A model generated the notes under the pieces. It ran no database searches. It worked only from the letters and a program-made list of their open reading frames with translations, and was not told the origin of the DNA. Of a stretch of DNA of 64,000 nucleotides, positions 1,150 to 14,665 are shown piece after piece. Numbering within the stretch: position 1 is the stretch's first letter; each line of letters begins with the position of its first letter. Both the position numbers and the translations under genes were made by a program. This DNA is from an uncultured Gammaproteobacteria bacterium (lineage in GTDB: Bacteria; Pseudomonadota; Gammaproteobacteria; UBA9214), in the NCBI GenBank assembly GCA_963803275.1, contig CAWDLS010000001.1, forward strand, positions 17,487-81,486, in the 5' to 3' direction.

Positions 1150-1485
1150 GAGGGGGTGCAATATCGGCCTGAACCTGCTCACCTTTTGGTCTTGGTATCC
1201 TTGACCGGGCCGGTCGCGGCAGCCGGCTTGCCGGAGTCGCCCTTGTCCGGCTTGCCGGCGGCGCCCTTGTCCGTCTTGTCGCCCTGGACGACATTTTTTC
1301 TCTGCCGGTCTTGAAGTCGGTCTCATACCAGCCGCCGCCCTTGAGGCGAAAGGCGGATGGCGAAACCAGCTTCTTGAGTGTCTCGGCCCCGCACTCCGGG
1401 CAGTGGGTCAGCGGGGCCTCATTGACCTTCTGCAGGTTATCAAGGTATACCCGCAGGCACTGCACCGGTATTCATAGATTGGCAT
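1150..1485 (-). CDS. FmdB-family zinc-ribbon protein (frameshifted; 3' end approximate)
   Basis: ATG at 1485 gives MPIYEYRCSACG; the adjacent frame gives PLTHCPECG...AFRLKGGGWYETDFK. Usual position upstream of aspS. Confidence 0.88.
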
Positions 1486-1641
1486 GCGTATATCCCGTCA
1501 ATGGACCTGATTTCCGGGCCGGCGCATTATACAGGCCGCGCGGCCTGAATACAGTGTCATGGTGCCGCGGCCGCGGACCCGGTACCGCCTGCGCGCCGAT
1601 TCTGTGACAATAGGGTGCTCCGTTTCCAGGCGAACCCCGTC

Positions 1642-10741: not shown

Positions 10742-11554
10742 ATGCGATTGACGAGTTTAATCCTGGCCGCCCTGCTGCTGGTTTCCGGCGGGTGCTCCCT
10801 GCTCCCCGACCAGGTCGACAAGACCAAGGACTGGTCCGCCAACCAGCTCTACAGTGCGGCCAAGGATGAGCTGACGCAAAAGAACTACGAACAGGCGATC
10901 AAGTACTTCGAAAGCCTCGAGTCCCGCTACCCGTTCGGCAAGTTTGCCCAGCAGGCACAGCTGGAGATCGCCTACGCCTATTACAAGTTTGATGAACCCG
11001 ACCTGGCACTGGCGGCGGCTGACCGCTTCATCAAGATCTATCCGCGTCACCAGAACGTGGATTATGCCTGGTACCTGAAAGGACTGGTCAACTACAGCCG
11101 CGGGAAGTCGGTGGTCGACCGGTTGCTGCCGCAGGACCCCACCGAGCGCGACACCGTCACCATGCGCACGGCCTATGATGACTTCAACCAGCTCTTGCAA
11201 CGCTACCCGGACAGCATCTACGCCAGGGACGCCGCCCAGCGCATGATTTACCTGCGTAACAGCATGGCGGAGTACGAACTGCATGTGGCCGACTATTACA
11301 TGCGGCGCAAGGCCTATGTCGCGGTCGTCAACCGCTGCAAGTACGTGATCGAGAATTTCCAGCGCACCCCGTCCGTGCCAAACGCACTGGTGTACATGGT
11401 ACGCGCCTACCGGATACTCGGCGCCGATGACATGGCCGCGGATGCACTGAAGGTACTGCGTCTCAACTACCCGCAAAGCCCCGACCTTGCCCTGCTGGAC
11501 GCACCCGGTGGCTACCCGGCCGATCAGTCACCCTCGATCTGGAAGTTCTGGTAG
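10742..11554 (+). CDS. bamD: Outer membrane assembly lipoprotein BamD
   Basis: Lipobox LVSGGC, YPFGKFAQQAQLEIAYAYYK, ADYYMRRKAYVAVVNR; divergent from rluD. Confidence 0.95.
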   Translation: MRLTSLILAALLLVSGGCSLLPDQVDKTKDWSANQLYSAAKDELTQKNYEQAIKYFESLESRYPFGKFAQQAQLEIAYAYYKFDEPDLALAAADRFIKIYPRHQNVDYAWYLKGLVNYSRGKSVVDRLLPQDPTERDTVTMRTAYDDFNQLLQRYPDSIYARDAAQRMIYLRNSMAEYELHVADYYMRRKAYVAVVNRCKYVIENFQRTPSVPNALVYMVRAYRILGADDMAADALKVLRLNYPQSPDLALLDAPGGYPADQSPSIWKFW

Positions 11555-13182
11555 CCGCTGGTGATCGGGTAGCGCCGGTCACGGCCGAATGCGCGCCGCG
11601 AAATGCGTACCCCCGGTGGTGCCTGGCGGCGCTTGTATTCGTTGCGGTCGACCATACCGGCGACACGCGCCACCACCGCGGCATCGAAGCCTTCCGCCAC
11701 GATGCGCTCGACGCTCATGTCCCGCTCGATATAGCGCTCCAGGATCGGGTCCAGCACCTCGTAGGGCGGCAGGCTGTCGGCATCCTTCTGGTCCGGCGCC
11801 AGTTCCGCTGACGGCGGGCGCGCCAGCACGCGTTGCGGTATCACGTCACCCAGGCCGTTGCGGTAGCGTGACAGGCGGTATACCAGCAGTTTCGGTACAT
11901 CCTTGAGCGGTGCGAAGCCGCCCGCCATATCGCCGTACAGGGTGGCGTAGCCGACCGACATCTCGCTCTTGTTGCCCGTCGTCAGCAGGATGCGGCGCTG
12001 CTTGTTCGAGATCGCCATCAGGATGATGCCGCGACAACGGGCCTGGATATTTTCCTCGGTGGTGTCCACGGCACAGCCCTGAAAGACCGGCGCCAGCACC
12101 TCGAGAAAACTGTTGAACGGCCCCTCGATGGAAATTTCCCGGCAGTGCACGCCCAGCGCCGCCGCCTCCGCACGCGCATCCGCGAGACTCATCGCCGCGG
12201 TGTAGCGCGATGGCATCATCACCGCCTCCACCTGCCCCGCCCCGATGGCGTCCACCGCCAGCGCCAGGGTCAACGCCGAATCAATGCCGCCGGACAGGCC
12301 CAGCACCGCGCCCTCGAAGCCGTTCTTGCGGATGTAGTCGCGCACGCCCAGCACCAGCACGTCATAGACCGCCGCCTCCAGCGTCAGGCGCGGTGCACAG
12401 TCGGCGACAGCCGGCTTCGCCTGTTCGCCGGCCGCGATGTCGACGGCATACAGGCCCTCGACGCAGGCCGGCGCATGCTGCGTCAGCTCGCCGTGCCGGT
12501 CAACCACAAACGAACCGCCGTCGAACACCAGTTCATCCTGGCCGCCGACCAGGTTGACGTAAAGAATGGGCAGGTCGTTCTCGCACGCACGCTGCGCCAG
12601 CAACTGCTCGCGTTCGGAACGCTTGCCGGCATGGAACGGCGAGGCGTTGAGATTAACCAGCAGGCGGGCACCCGCCGCCGCCGCCTGCTGCGCCGGGCCG
12701 GCTTGCCAGATGTCCTCGCAGATGGTTATGCCGACCGGGATATCACCGAGCTGCACGACACAAGGCTGGTCGCCAGCGGAAAAATAGCGCTTTTCGTCGA
12801 ACACGCTGTAGTTGGGCAGCAGCTGTTTCCGGTACAGCGCGATGATGCGGCCGTCGCGGATCACCAGCGCGGCGTTGAACAACAGCCCCCCCTCCTGCAG
12901 CGGACTGCCGACGATCGCCGTGATGCCGCTGATCGTGCGACACAGGCGACCAATCGCGACCTGCACGTGTTCCATGAAATGCGGCCTGAACAGCAGGTCC
13001 TCCGGCGGGTAACCGGTCAGCGCCAGCTCCGGGAACACCACGACGGCGGCCCCGAGTCCGTCGCGCGCCTGCACGCAGGCATCGAGTATCCGGTCGGTAT
13101 TGGCCGGGATGGCGCCGACCAGGAAGTCGAGCTGGGCCATGACGATGCGGAGGCCCGGAGTTTGTTGTTTTGTTGGGGTCAT
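11524..13182 (-). CDS. nadE: Glutamine-dependent NAD+ synthetase
   Basis: Nitrilase domain (FPELALTGYPPEDL, LPNYSVFDEKRYF, ICEDIW) plus synthetase domain (GLSGGIDS, ENIQAR, TTGNKSE, NEYKRRQAPPG). Confidence 0.96.
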   Translation of the reverse strand: MTPTKQQTPGLRIVMAQLDFLVGAIPANTDRILDACVQARDGLGAAVVVFPELALTGYPPEDLLFRPHFMEHVQVAIGRLCRTISGITAIVGSPLQEGGLLFNAALVIRDGRIIALYRKQLLPNYSVFDEKRYFSAGDQPCVVQLGDIPVGITICEDIWQAGPAQQAAAAGARLLVNLNASPFHAGKRSEREQLLAQRACENDLPILYVNLVGGQDELVFDGGSFVVDRHGELTQHAPACVEGLYAVDIAAGEQAKPAVADCAPRLTLEAAVYDVLVLGVRDYIRKNGFEGAVLGLSGGIDSALTLALAVDAIGAGQVEAVMMPSRYTAAMSLADARAEAAALGVHCREISIEGPFNSFLEVLAPVFQGCAVDTTEENIQARCRGIILMAISNKQRRILLTTGNKSEMSVGYATLYGDMAGGFAPLKDVPKLLVYRLSRYRNGLGDVIPQRVLARPPSAELAPDQKDADSLPPYEVLDPILERYIERDMSVERIVAEGFDAAVVARVAGMVDRNEYKRRQAPPGVRISRRAFGRDRRYPITSGYQNFQIEGD

Positions 13183-13239
13183 GGTTTATGAGTCCTACAG
13201 CTATAAGGGACTTCATAATTTCGTGATGAACCATCTTTA

Positions 13240-13748
13240 CAGGTTTCGCCCGTGCGGGCGAGGTACTTTCTCTTGCGTGCCCAAGAGAAAGTACCCAAAG
13301 AGAAGGGCACCCGATGCCCGCGCCGGCTAACGCCGGTGCCCTGCGTTCCTCGCCAGGCCGGGGGCGCGCACAACTCGGAGCCGGAACGGGATTGGCTAAT
13401 TCCGTTCCGGCTTGCCTCGAACAGGGTGCGCGCCTTCATCCCGGCCTAGCTGCGGTACTCGGCACGGGCTACGGGGCGAGGGGTGTCAGCGTTTGGTCCC
13501 GTCAGGCGCCGCCGAGCATCGCAGGCGGTTTGGGATGAAGCGAGCCGCCGTGTCGAGCTGGATTTGCTAGCCGCAAGGCGCGGCAAATCCTGCGAGTTCG
13601 GCGAGCGCCCAAACCGGCGAGAAGCGCAGGGAACCCGGTCGGTCATCGCAGATGACCGACCGGGCAAGCCTTCGGGTCCGCCTTTCTTTTGGGTACTTTT
13701 CTTTGGCGGAGCAAAGAAAAGTACCTCGCCCAAGCGAGGCGAAATCTG
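13240..13748. repeat. Structured non-coding inverted doublet: unit A 13240-13476, unit B 13497-13748 in opposite orientation (MITE-like or structured RNA/ssDNA element)
   Basis: The reverse complement of B aligns with A over its full length (CAG.TTTCGCC...GGGCGAGGTACTTT...GTACCCAAA...ACCCG...CCCTGCG.T.CTCGCC...AACTCG...CTCGA...TTCATCCC...CTGCG.T.CTCGGC...ACGGG), with compensatory changes in stems. AT-rich flanks. Confidence 0.88.
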
Positions 13749-13792
13749 CAACAAAATAATAAAATTTGAATAATTCAACTGTTGAAAAAGTA

Positions 13793-14665
13793 TCAACCCA
13801 CCAGTGCCCGCTGCATGGCGACACCGATCTCCGCGGGCGAACGCGCCACGGTGACACCCGCGGCCTCGAGTGCGGCGATCTTCGCCGCCGCCGTACCCTG
13901 GCCGCCGCTGATGATGGCGCCGGCATGACCCATGCGCTTGCCGGGCGGTGCCGTCACGCCGGCGATGTAGGCAACCACCGGCTTGCTGACCCGCGAGCGC
14001 ACGAACTCCGCGGCACGCTCCTCGTCGCTGCCGCCGATCTCGCCGATCATGACGATGCCGCGGGTATCCGGATCGGCCTCGAACAATTGCAGGCAATCGA
14101 TAAAGCCCATGCCGCGGATCGGGTCGCCGCCGATGCCGATACAGGTGCTCTGGCCAAAGCCGCAGCGGCTGGTCTGGAACACCGCCTCGTAGGTCAGCGT
14201 GCCGGAGCGCGACACGATGCCGATGCTGCCGGGCGTGTGGATGACGCCCGGCATGATGCCGATCTTGCAGGCGCCCGGGGTGATGATGCCCGGGCAGTTG
14301 GGCCCGATGAGCCGCGCATGTGTTTCACGCAGTACCGCCTTCACGCGCAGCATATCCAGCACCGGGATGCCTTCCGTGATGCACACGATCAGGCCGATGC
14401 CGGCAGCGGCTGCCTCCAGGATCGCATCGGCCGCGAACGCCGCCGGCACGTAGATCATGGTGGCATCCGCACCCGTTGCACTGACTGCATCCTTCACGGT
14501 ATTGAACACCGGCAACCCGAGATGGGTCTGTCCACCCTTGCCCGGTGTCACGCCGCCGACGAGGCGCGTACCGTAATCCAGCGCCTGTTGCGAATGAAAG
14601 CTGCCCTGCGCGCCGGTGATACCCTGGCAGATAACCCGGGTGTCACTGTCGATGAGCACGCTCAT
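13793..14665 (-). CDS. sucD: Succinyl-CoA synthetase alpha subunit
   Basis: [42 protein letters not shown]. Confidence 0.97.

Follow-up and report, generated by a model that had tools for sequence, protein, structure and literature searches.

The TwoAYGGAY motif, considered a probable RNA when it was discovered (Weinberg et al. 2010, PMC2864571), has been an orphan of function since 2010. Its Rfam covariance model (RF01731), which is strand-specific and has a gathering score of 43 bits, comprises a basal stem shared by two hairpins whose loops read AYGGAY. According to the main text of a preprint (Li et al., September 2026, 10.64898/2026.09.22.753630), TwoAYGGAY RNAs of Pseudomonadota carry additional hairpins, a lengthened basal stem and, on the 3' side, a pseudoknot, 68.4% of their doublets are divergent and the median is 11-23 copies per genome; a mobile-element-like expansion and possible Csr/Rsm binding were suggested, and the terms 'triplex', 'Hoogsteen' and 'major groove' do not occur in that main text. 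The triple helix of the telomerase RNA (TR) pseudoknot consists of three U-A-U triples in human TR and of one C-G-C and five U-A-U triples in K. lactis TR, and consecutive C-G-C triples have been reported to be destabilizing (PMC7583470). Here we analyze a window of 64,000 nt, the whole stretch studied, from an uncultured gammaproteobacterium (UBA9214; GCA_963803275.1, contig CAWDLS010000001.1, positions 17,487-81,486), in which a non-coding 509-nt doublet (13240-13748), a long imperfect palindrome, occupies the gap between sucD and nadE. Its two 49-base outer ends, unit A (13262-13310) and unit B (13677-13725), probably each form the 3'-terminal domain of a structured, RNA-like repeat of about 250 nt related to TwoAYGGAY, with two such repeats lying back to back and reading outward. 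The RNA family and the structural class were already known; of a triple-helix pseudoknot as a conserved 3' domain of this bacterial repeat family no description was found in the literature searched, exact motif strings included. To our knowledge, natural bacterial RNA triple helices of the major-groove kind have been described chiefly in riboswitches and group II introns, and not in small RNAs or repeats.

Covariation of the third tract with the stem

An earlier note made from the letters of this DNA had described, at the outer ends of the element, perfect pyrimidine/purine stems, a loop that pairs with a downstream hexamer and a second purine tract that mirrors the first. All of these features were recovered in both units: the hairpin stems are perfect 14-bp inverted repeats (I7 and I8), the loop and downstream hexamers pair, the two purine tracts are mirror images of each other and the module does lie at the outer ends. 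The pattern GGTAC-Y8-N7-10-R8-GTACCC-R8 matched twice in the window and not once in 100 shuffled sequences.

The further proposal of the note, that the third tract changes together with the stem, held across homologues. A scan of the collection with the hairpin alone as pattern hit at least 120 stretches and gave 195 distinct hairpin places among the matches listed, to which the following counts of places refer. A purine-rich 8-mer was present one base past the stem at 194 of the 195 places, and at 167 it was the exact mirror of the purine arm of the stem, with haplotype B at 81 of these places, A at 44, C at 37 and D at 5. In addition, 401 genomes of the class were scanned with a pattern blind to complementarity. 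Twelve of them yielded 35 matches in total (none with the reversed-pattern control); 34 of the 35 followed both rules, pairing and mirror, and a fifth haplotype, E, was added. Tracts of 7 nt and of 6 nt were also found, and they follow the mirror rule like the five 8-nt haplotypes. Put differently, the pyrimidine arm has its parallel complement in the third tract.

With units A and B alone the mirror looks no different from a direct repeat displaced by a single base, since each purine core is itself mirror-symmetric. A reading as one difference between A and B plus a shifted direct repeat was contradicted by haplotypes C, D and E and by the shorter tracts: a direct repeat would demand offsets of +1, +1, -1 and +3, and the mirror alone suits every haplotype. 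This distinction also bears on a regulatory switch or terminator, in which the terminal hairpin and the following U-rich tract would end transcripts entering the doublet and the purine tracts would be alternative partners (anti-terminator or decoy) of the pyrimidine tract. In three (A, B and C) of the four 8-nt haplotypes examined for this (A-D) the second purine tract can indeed pair with the pyrimidine tract in a register shifted by 1 nt; however, alternative Watson-Crick pairing predicts a direct repeat where the data show a mirror, haplotype D needs a 3-nt shift that leaves 5 bp, and the covariation of the loop with the downstream hexamer is left unexplained. As for termination, a consensus scan placed sites on the inward strands at both ends, 13243-13264 (+) and 13745-13723 (-), plus one at 13319-13305 (-), that is three sites against 1.3 ± 1.1 in shuffled sequence; the two at the ends consist of the terminal hairpin with the pyrimidine tract behind it, and the last is a hairpin that uses a stem 1 strand and is followed by the third-strand tract. 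The setting would also suit a terminator, as the 19 callable doublets (29 examined, 10 not callable) lie between co-directional genes in 15 cases, convergent genes in three and divergent genes in only one. Nevertheless, the U tract begins 5-6 nt past the GC stem unless G.U pairs are counted, the scan being positive on the inward strands only with a stem lengthened by such pairs, and we consider this explanation very unlikely.

The correspondence was quantified in an alignment (A1) of 150 distinct units that have a pure pyrimidine arm, a pure purine arm, at most two stem mismatches, an 8-nt loop and at least seven purines in the third tract, and that were never selected on the mirror relation. 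In its variable columns the parallel U-A/C-G correspondence reached 99.0%, compared with 82.2% after shuffling (0 of 500 shuffles reached the observed value) and at most 74.7% with the partner slid by 1-3 columns. Furthermore, C residues of the tract are nearly never adjacent (CC in 2 of 201 units), which agrees with the penalty reported for C+.G-C triples that follow one another (PMC7583470).

The two ends of a doublet usually differ in haplotype, being A/B in the family of the window and B/C in Acidovorax, Methylomonas and Pasteurella, and they provide a control that is independent of relatedness. Among 25 heterotypic doublets, both ends kept their own rule in 21, and in none did a third tract match the stem of the partner instead. 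These data bear on the explanation that there is no tertiary structure and that the mirror was inherited from a few founder copies through hitch-hiking or gene conversion. In its favour, the copies share ancestry, 162 of the 167 exact mirrors among the matches listed belong to just three haplotypes, and shuffle tests ignore relatedness. Against this, at least five 8-nt haplotypes and the 7- and 6-nt ones follow the rule from Comamonadaceae to Pasteurella and Megamonas, doublet ends differ and yet are each internally consistent, and no known mutational mechanism templates a mirror (parallel-complement) copy, so that a founder effect is almost certainly not the answer. The independent evidence for three-way covariation is the set of about seven haplotypes together with the heterotypic doublets.

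Pseudoknot fold, strand and relation to TwoAYGGAY

The H-type pseudoknot with compensatory changes that the note had proposed is supported by the alignment. In A1, 93.8% of the cells of the two-stem structure are paired against 84.3% in shuffled alignments (reached by 0 of 500) and at most 57.1% when slid, and 10 of the 19 pairs of the pseudoknot stems show change on both sides. Swaps in stem 1 are frequent at pairs 12/41 (CG 72, GC 67), 11/42 (UA 100, CG 21) and 13/40 (GC 90, CG 37, UA 10). The base of stem 2 (GGTAC/GTACC) has the compensated variants GATAC/GTATC, GTTAC/GTAAC, GGTGC/GCACC and GGTTCC/GGAACC, and in Pasteurella GTGAC/GTCAC and CCTAC/GTAGG. A second pseudoknot follows in many lineages outside the family of the window, where the loop of the terminal GC hairpin (hp1) pairs with the last 4-7 nt, or tip, of the unit: the longest run of pairing between this loop and the tail averaged 4.60, compared with 3.33 ± 0.07 when tails were swapped among units (136 of 150 parsed). 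It is weak in the two units of the window. Sequence comparison thus supports both pseudoknot stems and the isosteric covariation of the three tracts: two compensated stems stand in H-type order, and loop 1 is pyrimidine-rich, parallel to the purine strand of stem 2 and covaries with it as U.A-U and C.G-C. These are two features of the class of major-groove triple-helix H-type pseudoknots.

The proposed fold would have a stem 1 of 6 bp with variable sequence, a loop 1 made of the 8-nt pyrimidine tract plus 1 nt, a stem 2 of GGUAC plus an 8-nt pyrimidine tract paired with the 8-nt purine tract plus GUACC, and the dinucleotide GC as loop 3. Loop 1 would lie in the major groove of stem 2, parallel to its purine strand, and would presumably form up to eight Hoogsteen triples, namely U.A-U with one or two isolated C+.G-C. 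The GC hairpin would come directly after the pseudoknot, and in many lineages pairing of the last 4-7 nt with its loop would create the second one. At four positions the natural haplotypes exchange U.A-U for C+.G-C and in this way provide a rescue series.

The standard geometry of H-type pseudoknots takes loop 1 across the deep groove of stem 2, and loop 3 across the shallow groove of stem 1. A purine-motif major-groove triplex on the written strand is topologically awkward, because the third tract is loop 3 there. The complementary strand reads stem 1, U-rich loop 1, stem 2, stem 1', GC and stem 2', the arrangement of the telomerase type, in which loop 1 follows the purine strand in parallel orientation and keeps register with it from the junction; only this U-rich, outward-reading strand gives a classical H-type pseudoknot. 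Wobble pairs favour the same strand modestly (69 versus 41). The two strand readings in the earlier note consequently fared differently: the U-rich, telomerase-like reading of the complementary strand is retained on pseudoknot topology and on the strand of TwoAYGGAY, and the purine-motif or H-DNA reading of the written strand is not, its third tract being loop 3 in the minor groove.

A homopurine mirror repeat is the classical sequence requirement for H-DNA, and one (8 nt, 6-nt spacer, 8 nt) is present in every haplotype. However, an intramolecular purine-motif triplex formed by the mirror repeat in supercoiled duplex DNA requires neither a complementary pyrimidine tract on the same strand nor pairing of the loop with the downstream hexamer, both of which are kept by compensatory change, and tracts of 8 nt are short for it. 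H-DNA is highly improbable as the reason for the mirror.

The U-rich strand is also the one on which the module adjoins TwoAYGGAY. RF01731 matches lie directly 5' of it at two loci in Solimonas (50 bits) and in Aeromonas caviae (41.5 bits, gathering score 43). Conversely, the module stands directly 3' of RF01731 matches and on their strand in three genomes of the class, in 4 of 4 cases in G104, in 11 of 11 listed in G173 (17 were found) and in the single case in G218; it was not seen after five RF01731 matches in G153, G155, G121 and G159. The modules ascertained in this way, through RF01731 and not through their own sequence, include 7-nt and 6-nt tract variants, in which loop 1 is again the parallel complement. 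The module is therefore a 3' domain shared with bona fide TwoAYGGAY members, and the comparison supports its 3'-terminal place in a conserved unit. Compared with the text description in the preprint only, the element of the window shows a layout like that of extended TwoAYGGAY, with two outward arms that each have a long basal stem, hairpins and a 3' pseudoknot. On account of this similar layout we class the module as the 3' domain of a TwoAYGGAY-related unit, although the loops of the window's arms read UUAGCC or GGGAUGAA, not AYGGAY, and RF01731 is unmatched there. The 3' pseudoknot of the preprint, to judge by its main text, may be this module or the pseudoknot of the terminal hairpin. What the earlier note called an element is more aptly seen as two RNA-like units in a divergent doublet, with kinship to the known TwoAYGGAY family, and not as a new mobile element standing on its own. 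We infer that the molecule is RNA.

Other searches of RNA families and plasmids gave little. No Rfam family reached its gathering score over the units in the window or at 15 diverse loci; a match to the rpsB small RNA in the window was sub-threshold (27.8 bits against 40) and was judged a chance hit. The plasmid collection, probed with a Solimonas stretch of TwoAYGGAY plus module, gave no match.

As to function, the earlier note had suggested that the structure might block exonucleases or be a handle for recognition or priming. The module may act as a compact cap by which the repeat RNA has its 3' end fixed and protected against 3'-to-5' exonucleases, a tentative proposal that would parallel triple-helix stability elements and the role of REP hairpins. 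If the cap does protect RNA 3' ends, it would provide a compact, portable stabilizer for bacterial RNA. A wider scheme seems quite unlikely to us: TwoAYGGAY and its relatives would be a horizontally spread RNA family whose 3' double pseudoknot contains a pyrimidine-motif triple helix of up to eight triples, longer than any other natural one known in bacteria, the cap would both stabilize the RNA and serve as a handle for a putative polymerase or for reverse-transcriptase-like copying and spreading of the unit, and prokaryotes would thereby have their own equivalent of two eukaryotic structures, the telomerase pseudoknot and the triple-helix elements found in transposon RNAs.

Several observations weigh against reading the module as the triple-helix 3' domain of a TwoAYGGAY-related RNA. 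RF01731 gave no match up to E=10 in window positions 12500-14500 and none in the whole genome of the window (G000). Outer pairs of stem 1 are often mismatched, the outermost one (10/43) being open in 105 of 150 units. At 27 of the 195 places the mirror is inexact, mostly by 1-2 bases or by a 1-nt register shift, two type-B units bear a type-A third tract (one of them the own-genome copy G000:C3:300945-300988), and the compensated stem change TTTTCCTT/AGGGAAAA is not tracked by the third tract. The shuffle statistics overstate significance because the copies are related. After eight triples, loop 1 keeps 1 nt to bridge the 5-bp GGUAC extension, which is plausible across the deep groove, and hp1 is no obvious terminator on the outward strand because an A-rich sequence, with no U tract, comes next. 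Finally, RNA-library contigs of four metatranscriptomes (estuary, activated sludge and two sediment) hold element-like sequence, in data blind to strand and ends, and their summed word depth against window 13228-13760 peaks over the two end modules; as these are copies of relatives that may include DNA carry-over, and as the seven RNA runs with matching words all have small shares of the sampled words, they do not amount to evidence of expression.

Layout, copies and carriers of the repeat

The positions of the doublet, of its parts and of the neighbouring genes are collected in Table 1. Each arm folds at z of about -6.9 relative to shuffled sequences, and the motifs of the left-arm body are common to the Acidovorax, Methylomonas and Pasteurella copies. 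Unit A lies 80-128 nt upstream of the nadE start (13182), at the distance given in the earlier note, and the open reading frame (ORF) concerned does encode NAD synthase.

Table 1. Positions of the doublet, its structural parts and the flanking genes in the window
Feature	Position	Strand	Remarks
Whole doublet	13240-13748	.	two arms of ~250 nt, inverted, each reading outward from the centre; inverted repeats I1-I3
Unit A, candidate triple-helix pseudoknot module of left arm	13262-13310	- (functional reading)	read on +: GGTAC 13262-13266; pyrimidine tract 13267-13274; then GC; loop hexamer 13277-13282; purine tract 13283-13290; GTACC 13291-13295; C; second purine tract 13297-13304; hexamer 13305-13310
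Unit A, stem 1, 5' strand	13305-13310	-	GTGCCC on - strand; pairs with 13277-13282; covariation at 4/6 pairs in 150 units
Unit A, third strand = loop 1	13297-13304	-	UUCUCUUU as RNA; parallel to stem 2 purine strand
Unit A, stem 2, 5' strand	13283-13295	-	GGTAC + pyrimidine tract
Unit A, stem 1, 3' strand	13277-13282	-	inside hairpin loop
Unit A, stem 2, 3' strand	13262-13274	-	purine tract AAGAGAAA + GTACC; putative triple acceptor
Unit A, terminal GC hairpin and tip	13240-13261	-	hp1 13246-13261; tip 13240-13243
Left-arm body	13311-13495	-	long basal stem around hairpins with UUAGCC loops and GGGAUGAAGG stretch
Right-arm body	13496-13676	+	GGGAUGAA-loop hairpin, UAGCC-loop hairpin, perfect 14-bp hairpin 13634-13664; inverted repeats I5, I24
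Unit B, module of right arm	13677-13725	+ (functional reading)	layout of unit A with other tracts and hexamers; unit A-type written order on -
Unit B, stem 1, 5' strand	13677-13682	+
Unit B, third strand	13683-13690	+
Unit B, stem 2	13692-13704 with 13713-13725	+
Unit B, stem 1, 3' strand	13705-13710	+
Unit B, terminal hairpin and tip	13726-13748	+	hp1 13726-13742; tip 13745-13748
nadE, NAD synthase	11524-13182	-	downstream neighbour; PF02540 5.5e-69, PF00795 1.5e-28
sucD, succinyl-CoA ligase alpha subunit	13793-14665	-	upstream neighbour; PF02629 2e-31, PF00549 1.2e-25

A promoter-like site is found between sucD and the doublet (13785-13756, -). ORFs of 76-103 aa span the repeat at window 13100-13330 (+), 13483-13773 (+) and 13179-13439 (-) and at 1314-1625 (-) of locus L003; they are most likely spurious and are the kind of frame that is annotated as a hypothetical protein. 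Repeats like this one break assemblies and yield such spurious ORFs (e.g. window 13483-13773, L003 1314-1625).

The own genome of the window holds two further copies, one complete but decayed and the other truncated. Within the family, which here is the whole order, 34 of 54 genomes have matches, with at most 23 per genome. The carriers among the matches listed include Acidovorax, Hylemonella, Polaromonas, Vogesella, Methylomonas, Methylocaldum, Solimonas, Rheinheimera and Thiobacillus, metagenome-assembled genomes (MAGs) of Sedimenticolaceae and Ectothiorhodospiraceae and, outside Pseudomonadota, the isolate Megamonas hypermegale; MAGs labelled Eubacteriales, Vescimonas, Pseudodesulfovibrio, Spirochaetota and Peregrinibacteria are also in this list, which may be due to mis-binning. 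Replicons of Pasteurella multocida, Aeromonas caviae, Variovorax and Comamonas carry the repeat as well. In all, the spread comes to hundreds of copies across Beta- and Gammaproteobacteria. Homologous doublets are present in many genera, and the whole arms are homologous, not the hairpin alone, because distant carriers have interior motifs in common. On the inward side of units without a detected partner there is 150-800 nt of non-coding DNA, and no conserved gene was found in the inward flanks inspected.

At the locus of the doublet itself, the orthologous nadE-sucD gap contains intact copies in G034 (L020) and G048 (L037), so that the insertion there is old. In G051 the same gap holds a decayed copy (L046 1360-1560): its left module has lost the third tract and the downstream hexamer and has a compensated stem base (GTGCC/GGCAC), and its right side is the terminal hairpin alone. 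Solo terminal GC hairpins with both tips, perfect palindromes of about 28 nt, were found in the own genome at G000:C5:195254-195273, C6:29886-29905 and C6:49950-49970; since two related species (L021 and L025) have a full doublet at the site of C6:29886, this solo hairpin looks like the product of a deletion between two terminal hairpins, or else like the ancestral state. At one orthologous intergenic site in three species the doublet of L034 is oriented opposite to those of L045 and L068, the type-A end being on the left in one and on the right in two, which points to independent insertion or in-place inversion; the corresponding site of the own genome (C1 ~339886-339926) is empty or different. 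The boundary of the unit also varies between lineages, because inverted repeats extend 13-36 nt past the terminal hairpin at some loci (L092, L115, L118, L174 and L186, of the Methylomonas type, and L145, L171 and L198). Methylomonas loci show an extra small hairpin past the terminal one, and then a T-rich run.

Other genes were seen in contact with the repeat at a few loci. A truncated doublet, one arm plus end module, at L003 789-1220 (-), equal to G000:C1 ~604605-605036, borders on an AT-rich insertion with the gene of a DpnI-like, methyl-directed restriction enzyme of 143 aa (PF06044 7.5e-13; PADLOC mREase_II 3.9e-7). In a Rheinheimera MAG and a Proteobacteria MAG, end modules about 1.7 kb apart enclose ORFs of 191 aa (L079 3931-4506, -) and 425 aa (L115 1809-3086, -), neither of which has a Pfam or PADLOC match; these ORFs may be cargo or later insertions.

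This distribution is where a role in single-stranded DNA deserves to be weighed. The same fold could form in a transposition, replication or repair intermediate, through T.A-T/C+.G-C triples or a purine-motif triplex on the other strand, and could be the handle of a putative mobilizing or copying enzyme. The repeat is multi-copy, patchy and present across several phyla, its orientation can be opposite at one locus between species, the solo terminal hairpins resemble deletion footprints, some doublets have ORFs between their arms, conservation is highest in the terminal module, as would suit a recognition site, and a mobile-element-like expansion has been suggested in the preprint's main text (10.64898/2026.09.22.753630). 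On the other hand, no target-site duplication was found at 33 doublets or at the sites compared between species, the adjoining TwoAYGGAY motif has been rated a probable RNA (PMC2864571), and C+.G-C triples require protonation in DNA too. Moreover, the Y1 transposase PF01797, the sole partner tried, does not track the repeat. We consider the DNA handle rather unlikely and prefer the 3' domain of an RNA. A Y1/HUH transposase was rejected as the mobilizer: PF01797 is present in 48 of 54 family genomes, uncorrelated with the repeat, with no match in the repeat-rich G028 and G031, and in genus g3 all five genomes have PF01797 and none of the five has the repeat.

Comparison with known systems

The comparative evidence points to an unusually long bacterial triple helix and gives TwoAYGGAY a concrete structural feature, a defined 3' domain. 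Like TwoAYGGAY RNA, the element of the window is multi-copy, intergenic and structured, and both occur in Gammaproteobacteria and in gut bacteria of the Clostridia type. With the telomerase RNA pseudoknot the module has in common the H-type topology, a loop 1 rich in U that would occupy the major groove of stem 2, predicted triples of the pyrimidine motif and conservation of structure over sequence, with U.A-U and C+.G-C interchangeable. Unlike telomerase RNA, it is bacterial and multi-copy, no template or reverse transcriptase partner was seen with it, it has up to eight potential consecutive triples, its stem 2 is extended by the conserved GGUAC/GUACC and a second small pseudoknot follows. 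The likeness to the ENE is of another kind: in both, an A-rich strand at the 3' end of an RNA is held in the clamp of a U-rich one, with proposed protection from 3'-to-5' decay, and in plants and fungi the ENE is carried by repeated or mobile elements. The ENE, however, uses a U-rich internal loop to take hold of poly(A) or of an A-rich tail at the 3' end, whereas the three strands of the module are all internal to an H-type pseudoknot, in which a stabilizing role would hold by analogy.

Among bacterial intergenic repeats, REP/REPIN, ERIC, Correia and others and MITEs are, as described in the sources consulted, likewise non-coding, intergenic, palindromic, multi-copy and patchy, with inverted arms, and some of them stabilize upstream mRNA or terminate transcription. 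The element differs from what these sources describe in being far larger, a doublet of about 500 nt with an elaborate structure that is conserved across phyla and shows compensatory covariation, tertiary contacts included; compared with a MITE, it has the inverted arms but neither a target duplication at the 33 doublets nor a correlated PF01797. BRE, a betaproteobacterial repeat of about 90 bp, is also intergenic, occurs in Polaromonas, Acidovorax, Delftia, Rhodoferax and Bordetella and overlaps the small RNAs BprJ1 and BprJ2 (Hot et al. 2011, PMC3110155). Some of these genera carry our element as well; set beside it by its published description and not by sequence, BRE averages 69% G+C and forms tandem arrays (PMC3110155).

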